Notes: generated by a model not told the origin, from the letters alone. A stretch of DNA of 64,000 bases from Thiobacillus sp. (GCF_018780105.1 NZ_JADMKC010000005.1:16482-80481); one strand, 5' to 3'. Positions 3,288 through 53,931 are shown, numbered from the stretch's first letter. Made by a program: numbers and translations.

Positions 3288-3661
3288 GCGGCGTCCCGGC
3301 TCGGGCTTCTCCCGCAGTACAGGCTGAGGCGCTCTATCTGATCAACCTGCTGCTGGTGCCGGGGCTGGCGTTTCTGCTGTTGCTGCTGCTGTTCCGTCGC
3401 CATCGCAATAGCACCGATCCGCTGGTGCGCGGCCATGTGCGGCAAACCGTTGCGGCAAGCCTGCTGGCCGGGTTGCTGCTGGCGGGGGGGCCTGCGCTGA
3501 TGGTGCTGGCGGGCGATTTGAGTCGGCCTGGCGTCTGGATTGGCATGGTTTTGTATTTTGTGTGCTGCCACGGCACGCTGGTTTTGCTGGGAGTGTTCGG
3601 GCTCGCGCGCGCACTGGCTGGCAAGCCCTTCAGCTACCCGCTGCTCGGGCGCTACGCATGA
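3284..3661 (+). CDS. Small membrane protein, about 3 TM helices (125 aa)
   Basis: ATGA overlaps with the norQ stop and the next gene start; hydrophobic ORF MSGVPARASPAVQAEALYLINLLL...FSYPLLGRYA. Confidence 0.75.
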   Translation: MSGVPARASPAVQAEALYLINLLLVPGLAFLLLLLLFRRHRNSTDPLVRGHVRQTVAASLLAGLLLAGGPALMVLAGDLSRPGVWIGMVLYFVCCHGTLVLLGVFGLARALAGKPFSYPLLGRYA

Positions 3662-4689
3662 TCGGCACTCAGGCTACCGCCGCGATCCGCGCCGAGCTTG
3701 CCCGCCATGCCCGCAGCTGGCTGGGGCTGCCGGTGCAACGCTGGCGCCGCCTGACCCAGACAGGGTTTTTCCTGCTGTTCGTTTGTGCGCCCCTATTCGA
3801 CATTTTGCGTCTCGACCTCAACCTCGGGCATTTCATCCTGTTCGGTTTCGACTGGACGCTTGGTCTCGACGATTTCGCCGCCGGGCGCCTGTCCACCGCG
3901 CAAGCCTCGCTCAACATCGTGCTGCGCGGCTTCCTGCCGCTGGCGGCGGTCGCCGGCACGGTGCTTTATGTCGGCTGGAAATGGGGCCGCCTGTACTGCG
4001 GCTGGCTGTGTCCGCATTTCTCGGTGGTCGAGACGCTCAACCAGATGCTGCGGCGCGCGATTGGCAAGCAAAGCCTGTGGGACACAAAACAGCAGCCCGC
4101 GCGCAACCCTGATGGTAGCGAAACCCCGCGCGACGCGCTGTGGTGGTTTGCCGTGCTGCCGCTGACGATCGGCTTCGCGATGCTGTGGGCGGTGGTGCTG
4201 CTGACCTATCTACTGCCGCCGGCCGAGGTCTACGGCAACCTGCTCAATGGCACGCCAACGCGCAATCAGGCGATCTTTCTGACGGTTGCCAGCCTCGCGT
4301 TCTGCGTCGAATTCCTGTTCGCGCGCCACCTGTTCTGCCGCTACGGCTGCGCGGTCGGCCTGTTCCAGAGCCTGGCCTGGATGGGCAATGACAAGGCCAT
4401 GGTGGTTGGCTTCAGCCGAACGCGCGCGCGCGATTGCGCGAGCTGCCACTCGGCCTGCGACCAGGTCTGCCCGATGCGCCTCAACCCGCGCAACGTCAAA
4501 CGCATGATGTTCGCCTGCGTGCAGTGCGGACAGTGCGTGGATGCCTGCGACCACACCCAGGCCGCCAATCCGGACGGGGCACTGCTCAACTGGGTACACG
4601 ATCTGCGCGCCGAGTCCGAAGCCGCGTTCAACACCCGTGCCGCCCGTACCCTGCCGCCGGCGTGCGGTTCGGCACACACGGGATCCTAG
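3658..4689 (+). CDS. Membrane-bound polyferredoxin (NapH/FixG-like 4Fe-4S protein)
   Basis: CGWLCP, CRYGC, CASCHSACDQVCP and CVQCGQCVDAC motifs plus TM segments. Confidence 0.87.
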   Translation: MIGTQATAAIRAELARHARSWLGLPVQRWRRLTQTGFFLLFVCAPLFDILRLDLNLGHFILFGFDWTLGLDDFAAGRLSTAQASLNIVLRGFLPLAAVAGTVLYVGWKWGRLYCGWLCPHFSVVETLNQMLRRAIGKQSLWDTKQQPARNPDGSETPRDALWWFAVLPLTIGFAMLWAVVLLTYLLPPAEVYGNLLNGTPTRNQAIFLTVASLAFCVEFLFARHLFCRYGCAVGLFQSLAWMGNDKAMVVGFSRTRARDCASCHSACDQVCPMRLNPRNVKRMMFACVQCGQCVDACDHTQAANPDGALLNWVHDLRAESEAAFNTRAARTLPPACGSAHTGS

Positions 4690-6534: not shown

Positions 6535-6556
6535 AGTTCAACCCAAAGGAGCACGC

Positions 6557-6814
6557 ATGAAAAACGAAACTCTCACCCTTATTGGCACAGTCTGCGCCGA
6601 AACCGCCGAACGCGCATGCGCCAGGCTCAAGGTTCTGCCGGGCGTACTGGATGCGACGTTCTTCGCCGACCCGGCGCGCCTGTGCGTGAGTCTCGACGAT
6701 GCTGCACCGTCCCGCGCGGAACTGGAAACGGAGCTCGCCAGGGCTGGCTTGCTGGTCGAAGCGGAGCGGCGCACTCACGCGAGCGGCGGTTGCTGCGGCG
6801 GCTGTGGGAGTTAG
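6557..6814 (+). CDS. Small HMA-like protein with Cys-rich tail (GGCCGGCGS)
   Basis: AAAGGAG RBS; 85 aa with HMA-like pattern (C...C..RLKVLPGV) and a terminal Cys cluster. Confidence 0.6.
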   Translation: MKNETLTLIGTVCAETAERACARLKVLPGVLDATFFADPARLCVSLDDAAPSRAELETELARAGLLVEAERRTHASGGCCGGCGS

Positions 6815-10385: not shown

Positions 10386-11652
10386 AATGGAAGTAACGGC
10401 TACGCCATTGGCCCCAGTCAGATTGGTACGGTTGCATCACGGGGGTGGGATCGACGACGCTGGGCGCGCGCAACAGCGGGAACTGCTGGCTGACCAGCCG
10501 CAGCGTCTGTACCGCCGGGCTGGCGAGCAGCAGCTTCATCATCGGGTGTTGCCAGGACAGACGGTCGACCAGATCGTTGGCCTCGTATTGCACATCGCCA
10601 ATGCCGTCGCCGTTGCGGTCCCAGCCCACATAGTTGCTCCAGAAGTTGCCACGGTCCTTGCCCCATATCACGTCCTGGCTGGCGACGTATTTGATCTGGG
10701 TACGGTTTGAGATGAAGTCGTTGCCGGTGACCTGGTTGTGGATCGAACCCGCCGCCAGATGCACGCCTGTGGTGTTGTCTACGATCAGGTTGTTGCGCAG
10801 GGTGTTGTACTCGGCATCGTAGATGAAGAAACCGCGTTCATTGCCCGCCACAATGTTGCCTTCGATGACCGAGTCCTGAATGGTGCGCAGCATGATGCCA
10901 TGATCCGAATTGCCCCAAGCGCGGTTATTGCGCACCACCTGATGGCGGGTCATCATCAGGGCGAGGCCGCCACGGTTGTGGTACGAGTCGTTGCCTTCCC
11001 ACACGTTGTAGTGGGAGTTCATGTAGTGGGTGCCGTAGCGGGAATGGTGGATGCGGTTGTTGCGGAATACTGCGTGGTGCGACACGTCGACGTAGATGCC
11101 GTCGCGCACGAAGCTGATGTTGTTGCCGATGATCTGCGCGCCTTCGGTGTTATAGAGCTGGATGCCGTTGCCGCGCCGGGGCGACCGATAATCGCGCTTG
11201 CCGGTGATGACATTGTTGCGGATCTCGACGTTCTTGGCCGTCTGGATATAAATGCCGAACAGGTTGTAGGTCAGGTCGCAGTTGCGCACCGCCGCGCGAT
11301 GCGCCCCCGGCTTGATGAAGATGCCGGCATTCTGGTCGATCAGTTCATCGCCCGAATCACGCACGATCAAGCCATCGATAACCACATCCTCTGCGGTGAT
11401 CCGGATCGTGTCGCCCTTGAAGCCGCCGCTCAGGGTAGGGCGGCCAATCCCTTTCAGCGTCAAGGGTTTGTCGATCACCAGTTGCTCCTGGTAATAGCCT
11501 TTTTCCACCCGGATCACGTCACCGGGCGAAGCCTGCACAATCGCCGCAGCGATGGACTGCCCTGTCTGCACGGTCAGTTCGGCAGCATCCCCGCTGCCGG
11601 CTGCCAGCAAGCAGAACCATGCAACCGCAAGCGGGGGGGGGCGGTAGCGCAT
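10375..11652 (-). CDS. nosD: NosD periplasmic maturation protein
   Basis: Parallel beta-helix repeats; RGNGIQLYN, SRYGTHYM, GNFWSNY.GWD; probable ATG at 11652 overlapping the nosR stop. Confidence 0.93.
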   Translation of the reverse strand: MRYRPPPLAVAWFCLLAAGSGDAAELTVQTGQSIAAAIVQASPGDVIRVEKGYYQEQLVIDKPLTLKGIGRPTLSGGFKGDTIRITAEDVVIDGLIVRDSGDELIDQNAGIFIKPGAHRAAVRNCDLTYNLFGIYIQTAKNVEIRNNVITGKRDYRSPRRGNGIQLYNTEGAQIIGNNISFVRDGIYVDVSHHAVFRNNRIHHSRYGTHYMNSHYNVWEGNDSYHNRGGLALMMTRHQVVRNNRAWGNSDHGIMLRTIQDSVIEGNIVAGNERGFFIYDAEYNTLRNNLIVDNTTGVHLAAGSIHNQVTGNDFISNRTQIKYVASQDVIWGKDRGNFWSNYVGWDRNGDGIGDVQYEANDLVDRLSWQHPMMKLLLASPAVQTLRLVSQQFPLLRAPSVVDPTPVMQPYQSDWGQWRSRYFHYEN

Positions 11653-14261
11653 CAATACAGCCATTGCAACGCTGGCAGGTCTTGCAGGAAGTCCAGCACG
11701 CCCATGCCTTTCATGACCAGGAACAAGGCGGCGGCGATCAGCAGGTTTTTGAACGCCACGTAGGCGGCCATGTCAGCCCAGGATGCCGGAACCAGATTGC
11801 GCCCCCACCAGGGGCCGTCTTTGACGTAGGGTTTGCAGCGCATGCGTACCACCATTTCGTACACGCTCCAGGCCAGCCACCAGCCCAGAATGATGCCGGG
11901 ACCAATACTGCCGGCCGCACCGAGCACCCACACCCAGGTCACCAGTATGGTGAGGGCGAACGTGGCTGCCTGCAGCAGGACCGGCTGCTGGAATACCTTG
12001 CGGCTCCAGGGGAACGCGTGGTCGAAGAACTCCTGCCCGATGAAGGCGGCCAGGCTTGGCCGCGCCGCAGCAGCAGGCGCCGCGACGACCGGGATGATGG
12101 GGATGAAGTAGCCGTCCGAACCGATCGCTGTCAGCGGCTCTCCGGCCTTGGTGCGGCGCTTGCGCTCCTGCGCCAGCGGTGGGCAGGCGTGGTCGTCGTA
12201 ATACAGCACCTGGCAGTCCAGACACAGCAGACATTCACGCTGGTCAATACGGCCCGAATCGTCGATGGCCTGGGATCCGCAGCCCACCTGGCACGCCGCA
12301 CATGGGCCACACTCTTGCTTGCGCTTGAGCCCCCACCAGCGGAACGTGGAGGGCACCGCCAGCGCTGCGCCGAGCGGGCACAGATACTTGCAGAACGGGC
12401 GCTCGAAAAAAGCCGAAGCGACAATCAAGACCGTCCAGAAAGTGACGAAAGGCCAGGAGCGGTTCCACACCCCGACCAGGAAAGTGGTTTTGAAGGGCTC
12501 GATTTCGGCGAGCTTTTCCGCCAGCCCGATGGAATAGAACGACACCCCGAGCAAAATCGCAAAAACGCCGTACTTGATCCATTTCAGGCGATCATGCCAG
12601 TTTTGCGGCAGCAGATGGCGCTGATAGCGCTTGAGGCCCAGTTTGCCGGCCACATGGTAGACCAGCTCGGCGAGCGAACCGTAGGGGCACATCCAGCCGC
12701 AAAACATCCCGCGTCCCCAGAAAAATACCGAGACGACAATGAAAATCCAGAACAGGAAGACGAACGGATCGGACAGGAACAATTCCCAGCGCCACTCGAA
12801 CAGGATGGCGTGGAACCAGGTCAGCACCTGCGTGATGGACGGCACGGCCAGCAGGTAAAACCCGACGAATCCGATCGACGTAGCCCATAGCAGGTATTTC
12901 GGGATGTCCTTCCAGCGCTTGTCTTTCATGGTTGAGCGACGAACCAGCTTGTCGCGCAATGCATACACCGTTCCCGCTGCGGTGAGCCAGAGCAGAAACA
13001 GGATGACCTCGACCTTGCGGGTTTTCCATACGGTCACCCAGGTCGCTTCCGGCTCGATGATTTCCGGACGGCCGCCTTCCAGATAGCGGCTGGGCAGCCA
13101 GTATTCCTGGTCGAAGTTGACGAAAGTCTTGGCGCGGGTTTGCCGATCCATCTTGTTGGCCAGAAACACCAGACTCCAGGGATAGGCCGCGCTGAATGTG
13201 GGCGAGCGGATGATGAAGATGGCCGACTCCCGGTAAGCGGGCGCACCGGCTGCCTTGATGTCGTAGAGATTGAGGTAATCCAGATCGCGGAAGGTGAAGG
13301 TATCGATGCCCTGGGCCACCTGCACCCGGTCATAAATCCCGCCGCGCACAAAGCCCGAGCCCTTGAACGATTCCACCCCGCTGGCGACGATAAAGATGGC
13401 ATGTTCGTCGGGCTTGAGCCGGGACATCAGGCTTTCGTAGACCGCGTCGCCGAGCACGCTACGCCCGACTCCCGGTGCGTTGAGGTAGCCAAAATACATA
13501 TCGATGTAGGGCTGGTCGGCACGGGGCATTCCGACCGCCTCGGTACTGACCTGAATGCGCTGGACGCTGCCTTCCTTGACCAGCTGACCCCAATCCAGTT
13601 TACCTTCGACCGGCCTGAACTTCGCCTGCGGCAGCACGGTGGGTTCGATGATGCCCACCTGCTTTGCAATGGCCAGGCCACTGCGAAGAATGACCTGGTT
13701 TTGGGCAATCACGGTCACCGTGGCTCCGGTGATGGCGTCCAGGCCGATCACGCCCTGATTCGGACGCCCTGCGCCCACTTCGATCTTTGAGCCGACAAAC
13801 TTGCCGAGGTATTGCTTGATGAACTTGGTGAGTTCCTCTTCCGGAATGCCCAGCAGCAGGATCGGCTCGGAGTGTTTGAGCACCCGAACGCCGGTGACGA
13901 TGCCCTGGGTATTCATGCCGATCAGGGTCACGACAGGTTTGCCTGAATAGGCGGGAATGTCGACGATGTCGGTGGAGAGAAAGACGTAACCAATCAGCTT
14001 GCGGTCGTTTTTCTCGCCAGGGTCGCTTTTCCTGCTCTGGTAGGCCTCGACATAGGCTGGCTTGCCCATGCGGTGGGAAAAACTGTCGGCACCGGGCAGC
14101 ACCTCCTTGCACGGGACGTACGCGCAGAGATCTGGATCGGTTGACAGCTGGACGGGCAGGGGCGCCTCATAACTTCCGCTTTCGCCAACGGCCAGACCCC
14201 ATGCGCAGATCAGGCAAAGCCCTGCCAGGAAACGGGTAAAAAAACCGGGGAGATAAGTCAT
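11652..14261 (-). CDS. nosR: NosR membrane FMN/Fe-S protein with C-terminal membrane extension
   Basis: FMN attachment motif DAITGAT; CGWMCP, CKYLCP, CGPCAACQVGC, CLLCLDC; ATG at 14261 (ORF open to 14303). Confidence 0.93.
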   Translation of the reverse strand: MTYLPGFFTRFLAGLCLICAWGLAVGESGSYEAPLPVQLSTDPDLCAYVPCKEVLPGADSFSHRMGKPAYVEAYQSRKSDPGEKNDRKLIGYVFLSTDIVDIPAYSGKPVVTLIGMNTQGIVTGVRVLKHSEPILLLGIPEEELTKFIKQYLGKFVGSKIEVGAGRPNQGVIGLDAITGATVTVIAQNQVILRSGLAIAKQVGIIEPTVLPQAKFRPVEGKLDWGQLVKEGSVQRIQVSTEAVGMPRADQPYIDMYFGYLNAPGVGRSVLGDAVYESLMSRLKPDEHAIFIVASGVESFKGSGFVRGGIYDRVQVAQGIDTFTFRDLDYLNLYDIKAAGAPAYRESAIFIIRSPTFSAAYPWSLVFLANKMDRQTRAKTFVNFDQEYWLPSRYLEGGRPEIIEPEATWVTVWKTRKVEVILFLLWLTAAGTVYALRDKLVRRSTMKDKRWKDIPKYLLWATSIGFVGFYLLAVPSITQVLTWFHAILFEWRWELFLSDPFVFLFWIFIVVSVFFWGRGMFCGWMCPYGSLAELVYHVAGKLGLKRYQRHLLPQNWHDRLKWIKYGVFAILLGVSFYSIGLAEKLAEIEPFKTTFLVGVWNRSWPFVTFWTVLIVASAFFERPFCKYLCPLGAALAVPSTFRWWGLKRKQECGPCAACQVGCGSQAIDDSGRIDQRECLLCLDCQVLYYDDHACPPLAQERKRRTKAGEPLTAIGSDGYFIPIIPVVAAPAAAARPSLAAFIGQEFFDHAFPWSRKVFQQPVLLQAATFALTILVTWVWVLGAAGSIGPGIILGWWLAWSVYEMVVRMRCKPYVKDGPWWGRNLVPASWADMAAYVAFKNLLIAAALFLVMKGMGVLDFLQDLPALQWLY

Positions 14262-14400: not shown

Positions 14401-16335
14401 TCAGGCCTCGACAATCATGCGGCTGCGCATTTCAAGATGCAGGGCGTGACAGAAGTGGGTGCAGTAACACCAGTAGACACCGGGCTTGTCGGCGATGAAG
14501 GTGACTGACTTGGTTTCCTGCGGGTTGACGATAAAGTTGATGTCGTACTTCGGCATTGCGAAACCGTGGGTCAGATCCTCCACCTTGTCGTGGTTGGTCA
14601 GAATGAGGGTCACTTCATCGCCCTTTTTGAGCTTGAATTCCCGCAGGCTGAAGGCCGGCGCCTGGCTGGTGAGCTTGACCGTCACCTTTTTGCCATTGCG
14701 GAAGACGCCTGATTCCGCTGGATCCTTCACTGCGTTCGGGAACTCGTCCATATCGTAGATCTGGCGCGTCTTGATGATGTCGCGGCGGACGATGATTGAG
14801 TCGTGCGGCTCAGAGAGCACCGAGTGGTCGTGCACCAGCTTCATTTTGTCGCCACTGATATCGATCAACTGTGCCGTCTCGCAGTGGAGAGGGCCTACAG
14901 GCAGGAAACGGTCCTTGGAGAACTTGTTGTCCGAGTTGAAGAAGCGGCCATCCGCTTCCCTTGTTTCGCCCATGGAGGTGAAGCCGTGGCCCGGCTGGTA
15001 ATGCACGTCGATACGGTCGACCACGGCCTTGGCAGTCTTGTCACCCTTGAATGCCTTGATCGCGGCTTCCACGTTCCACTTCACGATCTGGCTGTCGAGG
15101 AATAGCGTGGTGTAGGCATTGCCCTTGTTGTCGAATCCGGTGTGCAGCGGGCCGAGACCGATTTCGGGTTCTGCGACCACTGCGTCGCGTGCGTTAGGCA
15201 GTTCGCCGTCGAACCATTTCAGCACCAGTGCATGTTCGATCACTGAAGCAGTGGGAGAAAGCTTGCCCGAGCAGGCGTAATACTTGCCGTCCGGGCTGAT
15301 GTTCACGCCGTGCGGGTTCTTCGGGATCGGCACGTAGCAGGTCAGCGCGGTTTTCGGATCCTTGTTGGAAGCCCGTGTGCCGTCCACTACCGGAACCTTT
15401 GAGCTGCCGATGGTGGTGAACTTGCCGGCCTTGACGGCTTCTTCGACACGGGCCACGTTGAAGAACAGGCAGGCATCCATTTCGGCCGACATGGTTTCTT
15501 CATAATGGACGCCCATTTCGGTGTTGTACTGGTTGGTACAAGTCAGCTTGCCGTCGTAAGAGGTCGCCACCAGATCGCAGTTGCCATCAATCAGCACCTG
15601 CCAGCGCACATCCATGGTGTTGGAATCGATACAGGTGAACAGCGATTTGTACTTGCTGCCATCATCCATGTTGCGCCCGTCGTTGGGCAATGGAATCGAG
15701 AATTCTGCGCCACAGAACACACGGGTAGTGTGATTGATGCTGGCATCGACCGGGTCACGCTTGTCGGTGAAGGTGCCGTGAAAGCCCTGGATGTTGGGGA
15801 TTTCCGTAATCTTGTCGCATTCCATGGTGTCCATCCGGATGCGGGCCAGTCGGCCATGGATCTTGTCGTTCACGAACATGTACTTGCCGTCGTAGGTGCC
15901 GTCGGTGTAGGACTGGTGTACGTGGTGTGTGTCGCCGGTGGAGTATTTCAGAGAGCCATCGGGCCTGGTGCCGATGATGGCCTTGGATTCGTTGGTGATG
16001 CCCCAGCCCACCAGGTTGTCCGTGTTGAAGACCGGAATGCTCTTTAGTTGGCGACCGGATGGCAGGCCGTAGATGCGCACATCGCCGGAATGGCCGCCGC
16101 TCGAGAACGAGTAGTATTCATCGAGTTGGCCAGGTGGCACCTCATATGGGCTGTGCGTGGCTACTTCGCCTTTGGCGCTTGGCGCTTTCGCGCCTGGAGC
16201 CGATTCCTTGTTGCAGGCAGACAGACCAACAGACAGGCCGGCACCCGAGAGGCCGACAAGTGCGGCGGAGTTCAGAAATTTACGGCGTCCCAGATCGGGC
16301 TGGGTGTCGCGGTTTGTGGTGTCGTCCTGTGTCAT
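14401..16335 (-). CDS. nosZ: Nitrous oxide reductase, clade I (Tat-exported)
   Basis: Twin-Arg leader GRRKFL; CuZ His motifs (DTHH, KNPHG, GPLHT, HYQPGH, EPHD); CuA CTHFCHALHLEM. Confidence 0.98.
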   Translation of the reverse strand: MTQDDTTNRDTQPDLGRRKFLNSAALVGLSGAGLSVGLSACNKESAPGAKAPSAKGEVATHSPYEVPPGQLDEYYSFSSGGHSGDVRIYGLPSGRQLKSIPVFNTDNLVGWGITNESKAIIGTRPDGSLKYSTGDTHHVHQSYTDGTYDGKYMFVNDKIHGRLARIRMDTMECDKITEIPNIQGFHGTFTDKRDPVDASINHTTRVFCGAEFSIPLPNDGRNMDDGSKYKSLFTCIDSNTMDVRWQVLIDGNCDLVATSYDGKLTCTNQYNTEMGVHYEETMSAEMDACLFFNVARVEEAVKAGKFTTIGSSKVPVVDGTRASNKDPKTALTCYVPIPKNPHGVNISPDGKYYACSGKLSPTASVIEHALVLKWFDGELPNARDAVVAEPEIGLGPLHTGFDNKGNAYTTLFLDSQIVKWNVEAAIKAFKGDKTAKAVVDRIDVHYQPGHGFTSMGETREADGRFFNSDNKFSKDRFLPVGPLHCETAQLIDISGDKMKLVHDHSVLSEPHDSIIVRRDIIKTRQIYDMDEFPNAVKDPAESGVFRNGKKVTVKLTSQAPAFSLREFKLKKGDEVTLILTNHDKVEDLTHGFAMPKYDINFIVNPQETKSVTFIADKPGVYWCYCTHFCHALHLEMRSRMIVEA

Positions 16336-45316: not shown

Positions 45317-45522
45317 GAGTTTCCTGGCTTGAAGGGAAAGAACTTCCGGGGACACGATGCCGTCGGTTGGCGGCGTCGTTGCAGATGCTTGATATAACGC
45401 TTCAATCACGGCGTACTTGAGGCATCTGACAAAGGCCGGGCGGAGCTAAGCCCGCTAGCATCTCCCCAAACCGCATAGGGGCAAGGGCCCGCCACCCATG
45501 CATGCATGGGTCGATAACGAAT

Positions 45523-45903
45523 TTACGCCGGGGTTTGCAATGCCGCCTGCATCGCCTGCTCGCTCACCGGGTAGGTCAACACAGCATGGATGGGAAACAG
45601 TTCCAGCAGCTTGCCGATATGCGGTTCTTCACGCGGATGCATGAACACGATCACCTTCGCCTGTGGCGCAAAGCGTTGCAGGGTGCGGATCGTGACGTCC
45701 AGGTTCGAGACGTTTGCGCCGGCGTAATTGTTGCCCCAGCCGTAGACGAATTCCCCGACGAAAAAACCCGGCGGCTGCTTCTGCAACGCCCGATGGAGAT
45801 TGCGGGCCGTGTCGAAGCGCTCCGCCGTAATGCCCAGCTTTTGGTACAGGGCACTGAAGTCGGGAGGGAAGGGGGATTCGGTCAGGGAGAAAAGTGTTGG
45901 CAT
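45523..45903 (-). CDS. Hypothetical protein, possibly receiver-like fold (126 aa)
   Basis: Clean ORF with alternating beta/alpha pattern; no family recognised with certainty. Confidence 0.65.
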   Translation of the reverse strand: MPTLFSLTESPFPPDFSALYQKLGITAERFDTARNLHRALQKQPPGFFVGEFVYGWGNNYAGANVSNLDVTIRTLQRFAPQAKVIVFMHPREEPHIGKLLELFPIHAVLTYPVSEQAMQAALQTPA

Positions 45904-46178
45904 GTTGCGGGCGTTTACATCGGAACGCGTTGATTATCGTCCTGACAGGCTGGCGCCGGAAATGGAGCGAGATGCTCATTTTTATTTCCGATGTTGACCC
46001 CTTTAGTCCACGAAGGAAACCGTGGTTCTTATCACGCACCCAATTACGCAAATGCCACCCTCGGCAGGGGCCTCCGGAGGCGAAAGCCTTGCCCGGAGGC
46101 CGGACAACCGGTCCCAGCCAGCTTGCACAGGCTTACGCGGGTGGTGTCAGCCTACAGCCACCGGGGGCTAGGCCGAGA

Positions 46179-46904
46179 TCAGGGCTTGTGGTCCAACTGG
46201 TTCGGGGCAGAGACGTCCCTACCGCCGAGTATCGTGGACCAGTTGCCGGTGGCTGAATTGTTATAGCCGCCGACCACCGCCGAGTAATAGCCCCCAGCTG
46301 TGTTGCCGGTGCCGCCATAGACCGATGCCATGTAGTTGGTGCTGATGTTGTTGGAGCCTGCGATGATCGCCCCGGCGCTGGAGTAGTTGTTCTGCAGTCC
46401 CATGATGAGGTTGTGGGAGCCGGTTCGGGTGTTCACCACGCCGGCGCCGGAACGCAACTCGTTGTAGCCGATGGTCAGGTTGCCGAGCCCGTTCACCCCG
46501 GCAGCGAAGGAAGCGCCTTTGCCATTGCGGAGGTGCAGATTGGCGCCGGTGATGTAGACATCGGTGCCGATGCGGCTGAAGTAGACCAGCTTGTCGGCCA
46601 CCGGCGCCACCTTGTTGTCGCAATAGGTCTTGGCATCCGCTACCCCCGTGTTCACTGACGCCTGCAGGGCCGTGATGGCGGCGGCTTGCTGGTTGATGGT
46701 GTTTTGCGCCGAGGCCAGGGCAGCGCCCTGTTGAGTGATGGTGGCCTGCGCCGCCGTCAGGGTCGTGTTCAGGCTGTCGATCTCGGCCTTCAGGGAGGTC
46801 AGCGAGAGGCGCTCCGCGCTGGTGGCTGTGGCCGCGTGGGCCAGAAACAGCGCGCCAACCAGCGCCTTCAACATCAATCCTGAGTATCCGTTCTTTTCTT
46901 TCAT
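46179..46904 (-). CDS. Exported coiled-coil / Gly-rich fibre or adhesin-like protein
   Basis: Signal peptide, heptad Ala/Gln/Thr stretch, C-terminal GG.N.A..S.V.GG repeats. Confidence 0.7.
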   Translation of the reverse strand: MKEKNGYSGLMLKALVGALFLAHAATATSAERLSLTSLKAEIDSLNTTLTAAQATITQQGAALASAQNTINQQAAAITALQASVNTGVADAKTYCDNKVAPVADKLVYFSRIGTDVYITGANLHLRNGKGASFAAGVNGLGNLTIGYNELRSGAGVVNTRTGSHNLIMGLQNNYSSAGAIIAGSNNISTNYMASVYGGTGNTAGGYYSAVVGGYNNSATGNWSTILGGRDVSAPNQLDHKP

Positions 46905-46970
46905 GGTCCGCTCCTCTGTGATGGGTCGTATGGTTCAAAACACAAACGTGCCGCCCACGCGGCACGCATC

Positions 46971-47001
46971 AAAAAACAGCCCCCTGGGGGAGGCCGGCTG
47001 T
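46971..47001 (-). terminator. Probable intrinsic terminator after the second PEP-CTERM gene
   Basis: Minus strand ACAGCC...GGCTG stem followed by T6; a second 8-bp hairpin lies at 46947-46966. Confidence 0.5.
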
Positions 47002-47116
47002 CACTGTTCTATGGCTGATAACGCTGTGAAGAGGCTCTACGCATTCCAGCAGGGACCAATGCACGCTCCCGTGAGCGCCTCCGATCGAATGGAATACGTG
47101 AATTGCCGCGCCGGCT

Positions 47117-47836
47117 TCAAGCCAGGCCGTCAGAACCTCTACGCACTGCGCGCCGCGTGGTGCGGACGCCCAGCAGGCCCAGGCCGGCCATCAGCATGGC
47201 CCAGGTGCCCGGTTCCGGAACCTGGGCCACGGCGGTCACGACGTCATCGGCGTTCCATAGGAAATAGCCGCTCTGGCCGTCATGGGAGGTGGTCACGCTA
47301 GCCGCAGTAAAGGTGGCTGTGGGATCGACGATGCCCAGGAAGTAGACCGAAGTGCCGTCGTTCAGGGTGTACTGCAGGTCCGCGCTGGAGAGGCTGGCCG
47401 AGAACGAACCTACCGTGAGCTGGAAGTCGTCGTCGATGAGCCCGTCCAGGGACATCACATAGAGGCCCACGGCGTTGCGCGCGCCAAAGCCCAGCTGGAA
47501 ATCGTCGCCGTCCTGAAGCATGCCGAGGTCATTGGTGCCGAGGAAGTTGGGTGCCGAGGTGGTGTCGGCCCCGTCGGTGACCTGCAGGCTCACGCCGCCC
47601 AGGTCGTAGCTGAAGCTGATCCCGTCCACGGTGTCGCCACTAGCGATCAGGTCACCCGCCGTCAGGCCGTCGAAGTTCAGGGTGGTGATGCTCACATTGC
47701 TCAGCCCCGCCACCGCCGCATCGTAGGTGCCGCGGTCGGTAAACGCGTTGGGGGCCGCCTGGACCAGGCCGGCATACGCCAGAGTGCAGCAAATGGCCGA
47801 ACTGCTTAGCAGGGCCTGGACCAACCGATTTCCCAT
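47117..47836 (-). CDS. PEP-CTERM surface protein
   Basis: Signal peptide; C-terminal VPEPGTWAMLMAGLGLLGVRTTRR. Confidence 0.9.
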   Translation of the reverse strand: MGNRLVQALLSSSAICCTLAYAGLVQAAPNAFTDRGTYDAAVAGLSNVSITTLNFDGLTAGDLIASGDTVDGISFSYDLGGVSLQVTDGADTTSAPNFLGTNDLGMLQDGDDFQLGFGARNAVGLYVMSLDGLIDDDFQLTVGSFSASLSSADLQYTLNDGTSVYFLGIVDPTATFTAASVTTSHDGQSGYFLWNADDVVTAVAQVPEPGTWAMLMAGLGLLGVRTTRRAVRRGSDGLA

Positions 47837-47913
47837 GACTCTCTCCTGAAAGGGGTACTGCTCTTATTGGGTTCGTCCGCCAAGCTCGCGGCCGAGGATG
47901 TTCGTTGTATACA

Positions 47914-48013
47914 AGCAAGTAAAATGCCAGTATAAAAATACCGATATAAAACATGATGTTGTGCGTCACCCATCGGCCAGGGCCTACACAAGTGGCAAAA
48001 AATCCGACACTTG
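47914..48013 (-). promoter_or_regulatory. Sigma54 promoter (47914-47929) and upstream enhancer-like box (47989-48013)
   Basis: Minus strand TGGCATTTTACTTGCT (GG-N10-GC); CAAGTG-GCAAAAAATCCGA-CACTTG about 60 nt further upstream. Confidence 0.75.
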
Positions 48014-48103
48014 GGCCTGGTCAGGGAACAAATGGGGTCACCCTGGCCCCTTTGATTTTGTAGCGATCGCCTGACGGGTAAATGATCCTGCCGCGCCGGG
48101 CGT

Positions 48104-48490
48104 TTAGCAGCCTGCTTGCTTGGCCAGCGCGTTGCGCATGCCATCAGACCAGTCCGAAATGAACACCTCGATTGACTCGGCGAATTCAGGATCGGGTTGC
48201 GTCTTGTCGATCGTACAGTGAACGATCAGCGCCTCATTCGCCTCATCTGCGGTGAGCGTCCATGTCAGCGCATGCGGGCAGTCGAGCAGCGCATAACGGA
48301 CACCTTTCCGAATCTCGTCGCGTCGCAGACTGAACGCACCCCAGAGGCAGTAGATATTGCCGGCGTTGCTGCTGTCCGACGTGGCCGAGCTGATGGAGGC
48401 GCACAGACTTGGCAGATTGTCGATGGTCAGGAGATTCTTGAGCGCAGGGATGTCGAGGTGAGGGTGTTGGATTTCGCTAAAAAATTCCAT
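48104..48490 (-). CDS. Hypothetical protein (128 aa)
   Basis: Clean ORF, co-oriented with neighbours; no family recognised. Confidence 0.65.
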   Translation of the reverse strand: MEFFSEIQHPHLDIPALKNLLTIDNLPSLCASISSATSDSSNAGNIYCLWGAFSLRRDEIRKGVRYALLDCPHALTWTLTADEANEALIVHCTIDKTQPDPEFAESIEVFISDWSDGMRNALAKQAGC

Positions 48491-48562
48491 GCGTATTTTC
48501 TTTAGAACGTGTGAGCTGAAAGTCGTCGCGTTGCCTCTTTCTCGTAGCTGTCCAATGCAACG

Positions 48563-49105
48563 CTAAACGCCGTATGGGAGTTTGGAGGCCATCATCTTCC
48601 TCCGGTCAAGCTTGCGCCCATCGACAATGAACGTTCCGTCGCCGACAGCGTGAACCGTGCGCTTCTCCTTGCGTGCGGTATCGATGTATGCGGCAACCGC
48701 CTGTAACACGACGATGTTGTGCTTCTTGACGATGTCTATGACCTTGCACTCCATGTTGGCGAGGCACTCCTTGATCAAGGGCGACGTGACGAATTTGCCC
48801 GGCACAGGTGTGAGCTTGAACTTGGCAAACTTGTCTGTATCAGCCCCAGAGCACGTCCCTATACCGACGACCTTATCCAGCATGTCAACCGTGGGAATGG
48901 CAATGACGCACTCCCTATTCTTTCGCAACGCCGCGAAAGAATGATTCCATTCACCCGTGGTGATGGCAAATAGCGGAGTGAAATCCATCACCATGGTCCA
49001 GGAGATAGTCATGATGTTGTCTTTCTGCCCATCATGGGTCGTCACGAGGACAACAGGCCCTGATTCCATCAGGGTAAAGGCCTTGTTCAGTTTCAACTGC
49101 CGCAT
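48563..49105 (-). CDS. Flavin reductase-like protein
   Basis: GPVVLVTT, NIMTISW, ECVIAIP, GTCSG..TDKF, PLIKECLANMEC. Confidence 0.88.
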   Translation of the reverse strand: MRQLKLNKAFTLMESGPVVLVTTHDGQKDNIMTISWTMVMDFTPLFAITTGEWNHSFAALRKNRECVIAIPTVDMLDKVVGIGTCSGADTDKFAKFKLTPVPGKFVTSPLIKECLANMECKVIDIVKKHNIVVLQAVAAYIDTARKEKRTVHAVGDGTFIVDGRKLDRRKMMASKLPYGV

Positions 49106-49295
49106 GAGAGCTCCTCGTGATATTCCTTTGGCATCGACGATATCGGAAGCTGACCCCTTTGCGAGGCGAAGCCTGCTGTAAGCCTGTCACCGTTGAGGGA
49201 TGGGTGTTCAGGTGTCATGCGTGAAACCGGCGGCTACAGGAAAAATGGAGTCTGACCTCATTTACCTTTCGAGCCAGCCCTTTGATTCCCCTGAC

Positions 49296-49691
49296 CTAAG
49301 CGCAGCCGCATGCGCCGCTTGCGGGCGTGCCGGCACTTTTGCCTTCGGTCGGGTGGCCGTCGCGCTTCCACCAGTCGAGTCCCCCGATCAGTTCCCTGAC
49401 CTTGAAGCCGAGCCTGGTCATGTTGAGCGCGCCCTTGGTCGAGGCGTTACAGCCGATGCCATCGCAGTAGGTCACGATGAGGCTCGCCTTGTCGAAGCCG
49501 GCGGTCGTGGCCGCGTCCATCGTGCGATGCGGGATGGATACGGCACCCGGAATGTGTTCCGCCGCATAGGCTTGGGGCGACCGTGTGTCGATCACGATCA
49601 CGGACTCGCTGTTCTCGAGGGCTACCTTCAGGTCCCACGAATCGATCTCGTAGGCCAGTTTGTCGGAGTAATGCTTGATCTGATCGTTCAT
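49296..49691 (-). CDS. Rhodanese-like domain protein
   Basis: IDTRS..AY..EHIPGA, YCDGIGCNAS, ELIGGLDWW; ends ACGCA. Confidence 0.9.
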   Translation of the reverse strand: MNDQIKHYSDKLAYEIDSWDLKVALENSESVIVIDTRSPQAYAAEHIPGAVSIPHRTMDAATTAGFDKASLIVTYCDGIGCNASTKGALNMTRLGFKVRELIGGLDWWKRDGHPTEGKSAGTPASGACGCA

Positions 49692-49758
49692 GTTCAGGAT
49701 GGGATAGGAAGCGCGGGGTTCATTAGAAATATTCGAGCCTGGCCCCTTTAACTCGTTG

Positions 49759-51114
49759 TTATGTGTTGAGGCGAACCATTAAATTACTAAGTCTCGCATT
49801 CGCTTTATCTAGCATTTGATCGGGGTCGTTTGGGTACCGAATTTTGTCCAAGCCAGACTCAATATCTTCTCGAGTCGCGAGCAGTGCATTATGCGTAGCC
49901 AGTTGATCTACTTGAGCGGCAATCTGGTCGCGCGGCAGTCGACACACAAGTACAGCGAAAACCGATGCTGGGTGCCCACTGCTCGCCAATGATTTTGAAA
50001 GTGAACCGCGTCTATCCACGAGCTTACCCAATTTTGAGGCGAAGTCGGCTATTCGAGTGGTGCACTCCACAACGATTAGTTTCCCTCCTGGCGTTGTTAC
50101 GACAATGTCAGGGGAGTTTGTTTCGATAGGAATTACCGGTGTGAAGCCGAGTAAAAAAAGAAGCGCGGCGATACCTTGTTCAAACTTCGATGAGTCTGCT
50201 GATTCAAGAAGTGCGTTTCTAACCATGCGCAAGTCTTTATCGAAGTGTTGAATAGCAAGAAACCTATTGTTTCTCGCCTTCGTTGCGTCGATAAACCATT
50301 GCCTTCGCACTGGGGACGACTTAATCATTAGTACGCCGAACACGCTGTCAGCGTGAGTCAAAACAATGTTTGCAGTGCCCACCCGAAGGCCATCTTTGAC
50401 GCGCCCCCAACGGATTTGACTAGCGATTTGCTGGCGTGCGTTAAGCCCCGCACCAGGTACTGTGCGTATCATCAGCGCGACATCATTCACGTTGAATTTT
50501 GGATGTGCATGGAGGGTTACTTGAAGCCGGTCGTCAATGAGAGAACACTTTTCGAAAATTATGTCGACAGGCGGGCCAATGTGAATATTGATAGATGGTG
50601 GATTTGAATTGGCCAGCGGCGATACGAGACCTAGCCAAGCGGTAACGTCTGATATCCCATCAAAGGGATTGTTGGCCACGCGGAGCGCATTGTCGAAACC
50701 TCTAAGCTGAGTTTGAGCCGGGAGTGGGATACGGCCGCCGCTGATTCGAAGATGGAGGGGGGAGTACCACGGTTCGCTATGACTCGTGTTCGAATAAAGA
50801 TCAAGAGATGCCCGCTCAGGCAACGGCAACGTCAATCGCTTACCAGGGAGGGTGAGTACTCCATCGACCGCGTTTGAGAGCAGCGTTAATAGAACCCTCT
50901 TGTTGCGCGGGAACTCTTGTATGTGCCCAACATGCCAGCCGTCCCCATCAATTTGAAACGATGTGTCCTTCTCGGACGGAAGCGGATTTAGTGCGATTGA
51001 CGCGTCCATGATTCCGTCTGGACTAGCTAGAAATCTAACATCGAGCGAATAGCCGTTACACACCCACGCTTCGGCAGCCTGAAGGAAAGTTGTTTTTCTG
51101 ATGTCGTTGGTCAA
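49759..51114 (-). CDS. Lower-GC hypothetical protein with C-terminal PD-(D/E)XK-like nuclease motif
   Basis: 451-aa ORF in visibly AT-richer DNA; FEQGIAALLFLLGF...PDIVV...VVECTT; TTG start with GAGGAG RBS. Confidence 0.6.
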   Translation of the reverse strand: MTNDIRKTTFLQAAEAWVCNGYSLDVRFLASPDGIMDASIALNPLPSEKDTSFQIDGDGWHVGHIQEFPRNKRVLLTLLSNAVDGVLTLPGKRLTLPLPERASLDLYSNTSHSEPWYSPLHLRISGGRIPLPAQTQLRGFDNALRVANNPFDGISDVTAWLGLVSPLANSNPPSINIHIGPPVDIIFEKCSLIDDRLQVTLHAHPKFNVNDVALMIRTVPGAGLNARQQIASQIRWGRVKDGLRVGTANIVLTHADSVFGVLMIKSSPVRRQWFIDATKARNNRFLAIQHFDKDLRMVRNALLESADSSKFEQGIAALLFLLGFTPVIPIETNSPDIVVTTPGGKLIVVECTTRIADFASKLGKLVDRRGSLSKSLASSGHPASVFAVLVCRLPRDQIAAQVDQLATHNALLATREDIESGLDKIRYPNDPDQMLDKANARLSNLMVRLNT

Positions 51115-51157
51115 AGAATCACTCCTCAGAACAAATGGGGGGTGGACACCATATTTA

Positions 51158-51445
51158 TCATTGGTGAACCGGCGTAGCAGAGAGCCTGACCCCCAGCGCG
51201 TGCAGCAGCTTGAGCATGGTGTCGTAGCGGGGCTTGGCGCCGGGTGTCAGCGCCTTGTACAGGCTTTCGCGTCCCAGCCCGGCATCCTTGGCGAGCTGCG
51301 CCATGCCGCGGGCACGGGCTACGTCACGCACAGCGGTCAGAAAGACATCGGGGTTAGGGTCGTCCAGTGCGGCGGTGATGTATTCCGCGATGGTTTCCTC
51401 GTTGTCGAGGTAATCGGCGGCGTCGAAGGTGGAAAATTTGGTCAT
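51158..51445 (-). CDS. Addiction module antidote (HTH antitoxin)
   Basis: FDAADYLDNEETIAEYI, ARARGMAQLAKDAGLGRESLYKAL. Confidence 0.92.
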   Translation of the reverse strand: MTKFSTFDAADYLDNEETIAEYITAALDDPNPDVFLTAVRDVARARGMAQLAKDAGLGRESLYKALTPGAKPRYDTMLKLLHALGVRLSATPVHQ

Positions 51446-51448
51446 GAT

Positions 51449-51748
51449 TCACTCCTTGTTTAGCGTTCGCGCCATTTCCATGGCACGTTTGATGTCGCGC
51501 TTCTGCGAGGACTTGTCGCCGCCTAGCAGGAGCAGATAAATAACCTCGCCGCGCCGGGTGTAGTAGAGCCGATAACCTGGCCCGGCGTGGATGAGCATTT
51601 CGGAAACGCCTTCGCCAATGGGTTCGCAGTCGCCAAAGTTGCCATGCTCGGCGGAACGGATGCGATGAATGATGCGGGCACGTCCGACCTTGTCCTTTAG
51701 CGCCGCAAGCCAAGCGCCGAATTCTTCCGAGCGCAGAAAGGTGTTCAT
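51449..51748 (-). CDS. RelE/ParE/HigB-type addiction module killer protein
   Basis: F..WL..LKD..GRARI..RI...GNFGD...GEGVSE....GPGYRLYY...LLLGGDKSSQKRDI. Confidence 0.92.
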   Translation of the reverse strand: MNTFLRSEEFGAWLAALKDKVGRARIIHRIRSAEHGNFGDCEPIGEGVSEMLIHAGPGYRLYYTRRGEVIYLLLLGGDKSSQKRDIKRAMEMARTLNKE

Positions 51749-51753
51749 GTCTC

Positions 51754-51782
51754 AATGTATCCAATCGGATACCGGATTGCAA
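51754..51782 (-). promoter_or_regulatory. Sigma70 promoter with overlapping palindromic operator of the TA operon
   Basis: TTGCAA-17 nt-TACATT; GTATCC-AATC-GGATAC palindrome at 51757-51772. Confidence 0.75.
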
Positions 51783-51804
51783 CTGAATATTTGGGGCAGA
51801 CATG

Positions 51805-51833
51805 AAAAAGCGCGACTGATTGCTCAGTCGCGC
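51805..51833 (-). terminator. Intrinsic terminator after htpG
   Basis: Perfect 10-bp stem GCGCGACTGA/TCAGTCGCGC, 4-nt loop, T5 on the minus strand. Confidence 0.8.
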
Positions 51834-51867
51834 CTGGTTACAGCTTGATCCTGTTGGTGATTGGCGT

Positions 51868-53766
51868 TCAGCCCGGCAGCATCGCCAACAACCCATTCAA
51901 GCGCCGCACAAAACTCGCTGGGTCATCAAGCTGGCCGCCTTCCGCCAATAGGGCCTGCTCGAACAGCAGGTTGGCCCAGTCGGCGAAGCGGGCGTCGTCG
52001 GTTTCACTGTTGAGCCGCGTGACCAATGCATGTGACGGGTTGATTTCCAGCGTCGGTTTCACCGTGGGCGCGGACTGGCCGGCGGCCTTGAGCAGGCGCT
52101 CGAGGTTGGCGCTCATGTCGGCTTCGCCGGTGACGAGGCAGGCGGGCGAGTCGGTGAGGCGGTGGGTGACGCGCACTGCTTTGACGCGCTCGCCGAGGGC
52201 TGTTTTCACGCGCTCGACCAGCGGCTTCATGGCGTCTTCGGCTTCTTTCTGCGCAGTCTTCTCGGCTTCGTCTTCCAGTTCGCCCAGATCGAGGCCGCCC
52301 TTGGCGACGGACTTGAGCGGCTTGCCGTCAAATTCACTGAGGTTGCCGGACAGCCATTCGTCGACGCGGTCGGACAGCAGCAGGACTTCGATGCCTTTCT
52401 TGCGGAAGATTTCGAGGTGGGGGCTGTGCTGGGCGGCGGCGAAGCTGTCGGCGGTGATGTAGTAGATGGCGGTCTGGCCTTCTTTCATGCGCGCCACGTA
52501 ATCCTTGAGCGAGACGATCTGCGCGTCGCTGTCGGAGTGGGTGGAGGCAAAGCGCAGCAGGGCGGCGATGCGGTCCTTGTTGGCGTAGTCCTCGCCGGGG
52601 CCTTCCTTCATCACTTTGCCGAAGGCTTTCCAGAATTCGGCGTATTTCTCGGGCTGGTTTTCGGCCAGGTCTTCCAGCAGGCCCAGCACTTTTTTCACCG
52701 AGCCGGCCTTGATGGATTCGATGTCGCGGCTGTGCTGCAGGATTTCGCGCGAGACGTTGAGCGGCAGGTCGGCCGAGTCGATCACGCCGCGCACGAAGCG
52801 CAGGTATTGCGGCATCAGCTGTTCGGCGTCGTCCATGATGAAGACGCGGCGCACGTAAAGCTTGATGCCGTGGCGGTGTTCGCGGTCGTACAGGTCGAAC
52901 GGCGCGCGTGCCGGCAGATACAGCAGCGAGATGTATTCCTGCTTGCCTTCCACGCGGTTGTGCGACCACGCCAGCGGCGCTTCGGAGTCGTGTGCGACGT
53001 GCTTGTAGAACTCGTTGTATTCGTCTTCCGTTACGTCCTTTTTGGCGCGCGCCCACAGGGCCGAGGCGCGGTTGACTGTTTCGTCTTCGTCGGTGGGGGT
53101 TTCGACGCCGTCTTTCCATTCGGTCTGCTTCATCACGATGGGCAGGGTGATGTGGTCGGAGTAAGTGCGGATGACCGACTTGATCTTCCAGTCGGAGAGG
53201 AACTCGTCTTCGGCTTCGCGCAGGTGCAGCACGATCTCGGTGCCACGCGTGGGCTTTTCGACGGTTTCCAGGGTGTAGTCGCCGGCACCTTCGGATTCCC
53301 AGCGCACGCCGTGTTCGGGGGTGAGGCCGGCGCGGCGGGTGGTGAGCGTCACGCGGTCGGCGACGATGAAGGCGGAGTAGAAGCCGACGCCGAATTTGCC
53401 GATCAGGGCGGCGTCTTTCTTCTGGTCGCCCGACAGCTGCGAGAAGAATTCATGGGTGCCGGACTTGGCGATGGTGCCGATGTGGTCGATGACTTCCTGC
53501 CGGCTCATGCCGATGCCGTTGTCGCTGATGGTCAGCGTGCGCGCGTCGCGGTCGAAGGCGACGCGGATTTTCAGCTCGGAGTCGCCTTCAAACAGGGCGG
53601 GGTCGGACAGCGCTTCGAAGCGCAGCTTGTCGGCGGCGTCGGAGGCGTTGGAAATCAGTTCGCGCAGGAAAATGTCCTTGTTGGAATACAAGGAATGGAT
53701 CATCAGCTGCAGCAGTTGTTTGACTTCGGCCTGAAAGCCCAGGGTTTCTTTGGTGGTGGCGGACAT
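51868..53766 (-). CDS. htpG: Hsp90 chaperone
   Basis: [50 protein letters not shown]. Confidence 0.97.
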
Positions 53767-53806
53767 GCCTTCTTTCTCCATCATGGTTGAAACGATGGGA
53801 CGGCAT

Positions 53807-53833
53807 ATTGGGGCATGGGGCGTGGGTTTCAAG
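53807..53833 (-). promoter_or_regulatory. Sigma32 (RpoH) promoter of htpG
   Basis: Minus strand CTTGAAA-13 nt-CCCCAAT. Confidence 0.8.
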
Positions 53834-53931
53834 CCCTGCCTGGTCACGATTTCCTGGTCGAATGATCTATAAATAAAAGCCCATTTTGGGTATCCGGAAG
53901 TGCCGGATCGAGGGGGCTAAGGAGGTACAGC

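Follow-up and report, generated by a model that had tools for sequence, protein, structure and literature searches.

Among the systems described so far, the closest to the repeats treated here are the TIRtrons, elements in which genes resembling those of the repetitive extragenic palindrome (REP)-associated tyrosine transposases (RAYTs) lie between long terminal inverted repeats (TIRs) and are called TIRYTs (Di Nocera, De Gregorio & Rocco 2013, BMC Genomics 14:522, PMC3733652). The TIRs of TIRtrons have the sequence GGGGWSAS in common and form moderately abundant families that occur as singles, dimers and groups, and there is no strict correlation between the presence of a TIRYT gene and that of the repeats (PMC3733652). 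RAYTs of a 'Group 1' that resembles insertion sequences (IS), with about 12 copies of the flanking 16-mer, were described by Bertels et al. (2017). In the present analysis, TIRtron denotes a small element with a RAYT-like single-strand-DNA tyrosine (HUH/Y1) transposase gene between TIRs of about 25 bp that contain GGGG(T/C/A)CAG. The locus in question is a cassette-like gene array at positions 45953-51131 of a 64,000-nt stretch of a Thiobacillus sp. genome of 3.3 Mb and 62% G+C (contig C29, 16482-80481; hereafter the window), in which short repeated motifs lie between unrelated genes close to htpG. These motifs are probably solo, half or miniature two-ended ends of at least three TIRtron families, standing at the seams of a gene-flux hotspot beside htpG as relics and not as a capture machine.

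A sequence-only reading of the window had listed six related, intergenic and co-oriented motifs. All of the positions that it gave are occupied, and the relationship and common orientation stand, with the qualification that the copies are a mix of sub-types from three families and that one sequence of this kind, CTGACCCC at 51186, lies within the HigA-like gene, where it is probably due to chance. TGRCCCCTTT has four matches in the window (45995, 48044, 49151 and 49740), all on the plus strand, all intergenic and spanning 3.8 kb; shuffling of the whole window gave 0.24 expected matches, four were reached in none of 100 shuffles, and the entire genome holds just 14. The word AAATGGRG is not enriched across the window (5 seen, 3.5 expected), and four of its five matches are on the plus strand in intergenic gaps within 45960-51140. 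The sub-types in the window are A (ATTCGAGCCTGGCCCCTTTRAT), A2 (GAAGCTGACCCCTTT) and B (AAATGGGGTCAGAC / GTCTGACCCCATTT), with the common core CTG(A/G)CCCC. Only the copy at 49725-49755 is near its family consensus, and most of the others are degenerate. The closeness to stop codons that had been pointed out is real: copies at 49725-49755, 49268-49290 and the right array edge end 4, 6 and 2 nt from the stops at 49759, 49296 and 51158, respectively. The proposed head-to-head hairpins hold in part, as noticeable folding was confined to 45955-45990 (-7.6 kcal/mol as DNA, z -2.9) and 48025-48065 (a weak hairpin, z -1.7), and 49243-49290 gave no stable fold.

In other genomes, every sub-type is found as an inverted pair around a RAYT-like gene, which bears out the suggestion that the motifs resemble the GGGGWSAS-type ends of Y1 transposases, the consensus being that of Di Nocera et al. 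(2013). In a related genome (G043, locus L009), a 244-aa gene of subfamily 1 (5971-6705) lies between two inverted copies of motif A, the whole forming an element of 840 bp (5916-6757) with the left end AATCAAAGGGGCCGGGCTCGAATT and the right end CAATTCGAGCCTGGCCCCTTTTATT; the encoded protein starts with MPRRPRIHLDGLPLHIVQRGHNRE and matches PF01797 (Y1_Tnp), and its best NCBIfam model is NF047646, REP-associated tyrosine transposase. A 175-bp derivative, composed of the left end, the last 100 nt of the gene and the right end, is located 1.8 kb from the full element. Motif A flanks Y1 genes also in G010:C16, in G054:C3 (three copies) and at L059, L092 and L165, whereas A2 flanks TIRYT genes at L155-157, B at L160-162 and L169-171, and a further type, C, on contig C24 of the genome under study (G000). 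Analysis of the flanks of 25 TIRYT genes assigned a distinct inverted pair to each protein subfamily, with one core common to all pairs. The TIR of subfamily 2 (protein start MPRRPRIKLAG) is GAAGCTGACCCCTTT, that is A2, as at 49143 and 45991; that of subfamily 4 (protein start MARLPRYVIPGQ) is AAATGGGGTCAGACACGAT / ATCGTGTCTGACCCCATTT, that is B, as at 49243, 48030 and 51133. Subfamily 5 (MPRRPRLSLPE) has GGGGACAGACC, a type without a name of which none was identified in the window, and subfamily 6 (MARPLRLEFAG), distinguished by an extra helix-turn-helix domain, has GGGGTCAGGTCTTGC, type C. Because each subfamily has its own TIR pair, the six motifs of the window can be assigned to the ends of three different families. 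At the GGGGWSAS position, the sequence is GGGGTCAG in A2, B and C and GGGGACAG in subfamily 5. TIRYT genes are present in one to three copies per genome. The only two Y1 genes of this genome (C24:178241-179158 and C24:180200-181057) belong to subfamily 6, and a cognate transposase within the genome was rejected, since both carry a different TIR (C).

Two further features of these ends were observed. The outermost 8-12 nt of the TIRs are often tandemly repeated, as a 'stutter', in all subfamilies, both in TIRYT flanks (L032, L159, L162, L164 and L171) and in the tails of L035, L041, L078 and L093; examples are CTTTGATTCCCG, present three times, and AAAGGCCGGGGTCA..., present four times upstream of a TIRYT gene on C24. 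The right end of the motif-A element (L009, 4077-4124 and 6717-6767) can be read as an open reading frame of 15-16 codons, MSELEKQFEPGPFDS, after a good AGGAGG, probably by chance, as other copies have no such frame.

Short-word BLAST and an nhmmer profile made from 49725-49755 detected about 13 copies of motif A in the genome (best copy AATTCGAGCCTGGCCCCTTTRAT), and these are clustered: three or four in the window, at least eight on contig C50, and one each on C53 and C14. Motif C is present in about 14 copies and motif B in about five. Twenty-one of 61 related genomes, some from other families of the order, contain the 18-mer TTCGASCCNGGCCCCTTT with at most one mismatch, always in local clusters; the reversed 18-mer, used as a control, gave none. 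The consensus of motif A from 38 copies in 12 genomes is (G)AAAWCAATTCGAGCCTGGCCCCTTTGATT, and in these genomes the motif occurs as singlets, which do not fold, and as inverted doublets, which fold strongly (z -5.2). The exact 21-mer TTCGAGCCTGGCCCCTTTRAT is present at more than 120 loci in Beta- and Gammaproteobacteria, among them Thiobacillus, Sulfuritalea, Gallionella, Sideroxydans, Nitrotoga, Rugosibacter, Dechloromonas, Sedimenticola, Parabeggiatoa, Thiomargarita, methanotrophs and Thiorhodospira, and also in one Desulfobacter record; conservation around it stops at about 24 nt. An even spread through core intergenic DNA, which would have spoken against the sequence-only reading, was not seen, the copies being clustered in strain-variable regions.

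The evidence that carries the assignment to seams comes from comparison with relatives, in which gene content breaks at the motifs, several times to the nucleotide. At the left boundary of the array, homology with five relatives stops at 45983-46008, inside GATGTTGACCCCTTTAGTC, the furthest end being 7 nt past CCCC, and homology with G488 stops at 45952. G461 has different DNA in place of 45994-48042, and its homology resumes exactly at 48043, with CTGGCCCCTTTGATTTTGTAG; at this junction the CTGACCCCTTTGGTTTTGTAG of G461 is preceded by a GTCTGTCCC-type motif, a different TIR type on the far side. The p128 unit, named after its 128-aa protein, recurs at 92-96% DNA identity in G461, G022, G062 and G444 with different neighbours, and its 3' flank in these genomes is always an A-type TIR or doublet; in G444, G062 and G022 the flank (48076) starts straight after an A-type doublet ending in ...CCCCKTTGATT, with GGGTAAATG. 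In G448, a 112-nt remnant, which comprises motif A and the 5' part of the rhodanese gene with the sequence upstream of it, ends at 49753, directly after CCCCTTTAACT and 7 nt past CCCC, and is cut on its other side by a perfect B-type mini palindrome. Homology of the HigBA module in G506 and G488 begins at 51132, with CAAATGGGG, and G506 has CAAATGGGGTCAGCACCATTT there. In all, three independent junctions lie exactly 7 nt past the CCCC run. A 248-aa methyltransferase unit common to three species has a C-type TIR at its 5' end, and one and the same position at its 3' end is taken by a different TIR type in each of the three genomes. The breaks fall at the motif edges, and the motifs therefore mark real DNA joints. 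As recombination scars the motifs thus stand much as the sequence-only reading proposed; as ends of a gene-capture system they do not fare so well, since no TIRYT gene is near the array and the repeat at C24 is non-cognate.

The array itself occupies a hypervariable hotspot. Where one contig carries both anchors, as in nine species, the stretch from the conserved 126-aa gene to htpG measures 1.7-9.5 kb and its genes differ, and in at least nine species motif-A matches are found 1-4 kb downstream of htpG. Only 66 nt separate the positions of G488 that correspond to 45952 and 51132 of the window; the array is a 5.2-kb insertion relative to that genome, bracketed by the first and the last motif of the sequence-only reading. 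This near-empty site (L182, G488:C387, 1100-1165) lies between the 126-aa gene and HigA and holds only GGTCTGTCCC-type and B-type TIR remnants. When 113 genomes of the genus were searched with 45900-51900, three of the six array genes (those for the 241-aa secreted protein, the PEP-CTERM protein and the 451-aa protein) proved unique to this genome, and 46179-47836 found no homologous DNA there except for the PEP-CTERM tail. The flavin-reductase-like gene has only 74-75% DNA matches elsewhere in the genus, whereas the HigBA module is common to about 15 species, with matches at 85-91%.

The second motif-rich array, on C50, is missing from eight relatives between conserved flanks, with a motif-A doublet exactly at the boundary. 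Around 5.3 kb of strain-specific genes, this array (L006, C50:10000-28000) has a direct repeat of about 150 bp (6100-6270 and 11440-11590), which consists of a motif-A doublet and the last 95 nt of a GGDEF gene; its first copy directly abuts a B-type mini element. A similar duplication was observed in the variable region of G023 (L020, contig C7, about 11727-12019), where a DrmC/PLD-like gene and a HigA fragment stand between the real htpG and a second, partial htpG 3' end of about 290 bp with its terminator. These duplicated 3' ends of flanking core genes (GGDEF and htpG) indicate gene gain by homologous recombination. L006 also contains, at 2292-2370 and 15786-15859, a sequence of 75-80 nt of which each of the eight relatives searched has many copies, with 85-96% identity; it may represent another, unrelated family of repeats or an element resembling a tRNA.

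All genes from 45523 to 53847 are on the minus strand, and the nine from 45523 to 51748 are functionally unrelated; their order and the positions of the motifs are given in Table 1.

Table 1. Genes and repeat-derived features of the array and its two edges (window coordinates)
Feature	Position	Strand	Basis or remark
Conserved 126-aa gene, left anchor of the hotspot	45523-45903	-	adjoins the variable region in at least nine species, 75-94% aa identity
B-like palindrome CGGAAATGGAGCGAGATGCTCATTTTTATTTCCG, inner left array edge	45957-45990	+	conserved in G022 and G030
A2-type TIR tail ATGTTGACCCCTTTAGTC, left breakpoint cluster	45991-46008	+	same type as the right end GCTGACCCCTTTAGTT of subfamily-2 TIRYTs
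241-aa secreted protein	46179-46904	-	Pfam search
PEP-CTERM protein	47117-47836	-	Pfam
B-type TIR head AAATGGGGTCACC fused to A-type half TIR CTGGCCCCTTTGATTTTGTAG	48030-48063	+	nhmmer motif-A match 48040-48058
p128 unit (128-aa protein of unknown function, gene 48104-48490)	48076-48525	-	patchy in the genus
Flavin-reductase-like gene	48563-49105	-	Pfam PF01613
A2-type TIR remnant TCGGAAGCTGACCCCTTTGCG	49143-49163	+	matches the subfamily-2 TIRYT right end GAAGCTGACCCCTTT; TGRCCCCTTT match
B-type mini element AAATGGAGTCTGACCTCATTT, then degenerate A-type TIR TTCGAGCCAGCCCTTTGATTCCC	49243-49290	+	blastn to C50:16313; nhmmer 49268-49288
Rhodanese-domain gene	49296-49691	-	Pfam PF00581
Best motif-A copy AGAAATATTCGAGCCTGGCCCCTTTAACTCG	49725-49755	+	nhmmer, 31.3 bits
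451-aa gene of unknown function, 50% G+C	49759-51114	-	
Degenerate B-type TIR AAATGGGGGGTGGACACCATATTT, right array edge	51133-51156	+	
HigA-like antidote	51158-51445	-	Pfam search giving PF21716 and PF05973 for the HigBA pair
Gp49/HigB-like toxin	51449-51748	-	Pfam search giving PF21716 and PF05973 for the HigBA pair
htpG, conserved right anchor of the hotspot	51868-53847	-	86-95% aa identity in 33 of 41 genus genomes

The 126-aa gene has no match in Pfam or NCBIfam. The neighbour of htpG in other species is frequently of a defence-like kind, for instance PDC-S06 (E = 1e-226), an OLD/GajA-like ATPase, a DrmC/PLD-like nuclease and a Schlafen/AlbA protein. The 451-aa gene, for which Pfam, NCBIfam and PADLOC gave no match, adjoins HigBA, where other species carry defence genes, and this gene of low G+C content is a candidate defence gene. 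With a single distant homologue among 400 genomes of the order, it was too rare to be considered as a travelling cassette. The one long intergenic gap of the array without a TIR motif contains two good intrinsic terminators on the minus strand (46946-46996). 'PEP-CTERM box', followed as a literature lead, returned no paper.

The array shares several features with integrons, but it is not an integron. Attachment sites of the attC type (RYYYAAC-N40-130-GTTRRRY) gave no match in 45400-51900, and the region holds no integrase or transposase gene, both as the sequence-only reading had stated. A stricter attC pattern combined with a fold filter identified true attC sites on C9, C14 and C53 and at C29:333307. 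The real integron of this genome is located on C37 (1-4210, L001), where intI at 3269-4210 is the only TIGR02249 match above the cut-off (494 bits); classical GTCTAAC...GTTAGCG attC sites, read directly from the sequence at the contig start, lie upstream of intI, with an IS110-family transposase inserted among them, and the array runs off the contig end. An attC/integron identity was accordingly rejected for the array, with no attC in the region and the integrase on another contig. In G043, the complete motif-A TIRtron described above (L009, 5858-6782) is surrounded by a true integron cassette array, with a GCCTAAC... attC half on one side and GTTAGGC on the other, and appears to have inserted in or beside an attC site. 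Because it lies within a true cassette array there, TIRtrons and integrons are separate entities.

Several points weigh against the view that the window motifs are relic TIRtron ends at seams. Motif A reads GGGGCCAG, one position off the published GGGGWSAS. The motifs do lie at junctions of unrelated, co-oriented genes, but two array junctions (46905-47116 and 48491-48562) have none, and the window junction at 48525 is without the motif that four relatives carry there. Exact-protein look-ups for strain-level variation returned only the same gene order, including one strain variant of 97.8%. The terminus 7 nt past the CCCC run is itself deduced from the ends of homology. The statistics need care as well. 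With strictly defined motifs, 6 of 34 internal block ends are no more than 20 nt from a motif, where 1.06 would be expected at random positions (P = 0.0002), a control that uses random positions while breakpoints and motifs are both intergenic. Considering intergenic block ends in 11 species with degenerate motifs allowed, 13 of about 16 are within 25 nt of a TIR-like motif, a figure with motifs judged by eye and with a corrected chance expectation of about 37%, itself a rough estimate. A naive statistic over all blocks, which takes in the ends of the flanking genes and is swamped by them, is not significant (7 observed, 5.6 expected); only the internal blocks are informative.

The most far-reaching alternative is an active cassette platform, in which TIRYT enzymes in trans would cut co-oriented TIRs 7 nt past the CCCC run, excise or insert single genes, and so swap single-gene units and build integron-like arrays at fixed chromosomal sites, the hotspots downstream of htpG and of a GGDEF gene. 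The result, if true, would be an integron counterpart built on an HUH transposase, by which sulfur- and iron-oxidising Proteobacteria are stocked with defence and accessory genes. Co-oriented copies do bracket units of one or two genes, the p128 and methyltransferase units recur in several species with different neighbours and with homology ending at TIR motifs, the methyltransferase 3' end carries its three TIR types at one position, the junctions keep the +7 offset, and the arrays occupy the same two chromosomal sites in many species; moreover, TnpA_REP of E. coli reportedly cuts single-stranded REPs in vitro and joins them again (PMC8266576). Such a platform is nevertheless unlikely. The arrays have no TIRYT gene in them or close by, five genomes with motif arrays (G009, G022, G023, G029 and G030) have no TIRYT gene at E < 1e-10, and the types in the window (A, A2 and B) differ from that at the two TIRYT genes of this genome (C). 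Across 186 copies, orientation to the stop of the neighbouring gene is not fixed (36 versus 28 within 30 nt), on which ground an attC-like fixed orientation to the upstream gene's stop was rejected too. The direct repeats also differ from the inverted left-end/right-end layout at TIRYT genes, most window copies are degenerate and some junctions lack a motif. Finally, the rhodanese gene, which the sequence-only reading placed between an inward-facing pair, does have motifs on both sides in the window, but its counterpart in G029 (contig C14; 87% DNA identity over 49296-49707) has a motif on neither side. With this, with the arrays that lack a TIRYT gene, with the unfixed orientation and with the signs of homologous recombination at the flanks, the claim of an integron-like gene-capture system is not supported.

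If, conversely, turnover were due wholly to homologous recombination in conserved flanks or to unseen integrative elements, the motifs would be passive passengers whose position has no mechanistic meaning. The duplicated GGDEF and htpG 3' ends fit this account, as do the necessarily intergenic placement of breakpoints and motifs alike, the persistence of motif copies in genomes without a TIRYT gene, and the 21-mer common to different classes, which suggests horizontal spread with cargo DNA. It is hard to reconcile, however, with breaks that are nucleotide-exact at the motif edge with the same +7 offset, finer than intergenic placement alone predicts, with different TIR families at the same junction position in different genomes, and with the exact abutment of the copy at the duplicated GGDEF fragment on a B-type mini element; as a full explanation it is improbable, to about the same degree as the platform. 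Far less probable still is a host cis-element selected at gene ends, for instance a terminator, a protein-binding site or a 3' structure that stabilises the mRNA. Within 30 nt, the 186 copies are nearer to stops than to starts (64 versus 37), doublets are strong hairpins followed by T-rich tails, and 48034-48050 scored as terminator-like. That match is on the strand opposite to the genes, however; singlets do not fold, Rfam gave no match in the window region or in the C50 array, and most core genes and many genomes of the genus lack the motif, whereas true terminators exist in the array where it is absent.

Other identities were tried and rejected. A hairpin with a conserved loop (AATCAA...TTGATT stem) had no significant covariation (Fisher p = 0.15), and the sole terminator-like match at a motif was the one on the wrong strand. 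Sigma-54 and sigma-70 promoters were rejected on a spacing that by eye is unlike GG-N10-GC and on a consensus scan that puts no promoter at the motifs, and an XerCD/dif-like site because its arms are unlike dif (by eye).

The reading as relic TIRtron ends can be cast as a sequence of steps. TIRYT enzymes of ancestors or donor genomes would have put elements or their miniature derivatives into single-stranded DNA just downstream of genes, and part of the copies may have come in with imported DNA instead. The fixed outer end, 7 nt past the CCCC run, would be the terminus that joins such DNA to its flank. Co-oriented, near-identical repeats of 20-30 nt together with the conserved flanks could then serve deletion, replacement and homologous exchange; gene content is proposed to break at the motifs because repeats and flanks gave the exchange points. 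Co-orientation within one array could reflect strand-specific insertion into single-stranded DNA, by analogy with IS200/IS605. The copies in the window are most likely inactive relics, since they are decayed and this genome has no cognate enzyme.

In this way, the cassette-like array is accounted for without a new recombination system. At least five TIR families with cognate TIRYT subfamilies are defined in Thiobacillus and its relatives, a precise terminus at +7 from the CCCC run is suggested, and TIR copies are shown to concentrate at the seams of gene-flux and defence hotspots. The elements provide concrete substrates for a first biochemical test of a TIRYT, and the htpG hotspot, with more than 100 Thiobacillus genomes, would be a tractable natural system for asking whether the ends of HUH transposases promote modular gene exchange.

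Compared with known systems, the repeats agree with TIRtrons in having a RAYT-like HUH/Y1 gene between long TIRs unrelated to GTAG REPs, in GGGGWSAS, in TIRs that also occur as singles, dimers and clusters, and in the occurrence of TIRs without the enzyme and of the enzyme without TIRs. The window differs in that it lacks a TIRYT gene and that its TIRs, from three families, are all solo or decayed, and also in the concentration of copies at hypervariable-hotspot seams with nucleotide-precise homology breaks, a pattern absent from PMC3733652. With the REP/REPIN-RAYT systems, or REPtrons (Nunvar 2010; Bertels & Rainey 2011; Ton-Hoang 2012; Corneloup 2021, PMC8266576), the repeats share the enzyme superfamily, the inverted flanking of the gene, the inverted doublets resembling REPINs and the location downstream of genes. 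In contrast to REPs, GTAG is missing from the motif-A consensus and single repeats are not palindromic, about 13 clustered copies of motif A are found at four loci instead of hundreds dispersed, and the exact sequence common to several classes suggests horizontal and not purely vertical inheritance; these are traits of Group 1 RAYTs. IS200/IS605 elements are set apart by the inverted repeats at TIRYT ends, by an NF033573 IS200 score far below the cut-off, and by the one to three copies of the gene per genome. Integron arrays and CALINs (clusters of attC sites lacking integrases) resemble the array in their co-oriented, unrelated, mostly single genes, in a recurring site near the stop codon, and in a fixed chromosomal place with strain-specific content; here, however, the site has neither attC architecture nor a conserved structure, and orientation is not obligatory. 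The genus Neisseria offers the remaining parallel, with minimal mobile elements, reportedly described by Saunders and Snyder in 2002, and with intergenic repeats such as dRS3/NIME and Correia elements. The repeat families and the associated enzyme are different there, whereas the minimal mobile elements and repeat mosaics of Neisseria and the present locus are alike in a site between two conserved genes, in different genes per strain, in short repeats at the seams, and in an exchange that probably proceeds by homologous recombination after DNA uptake.

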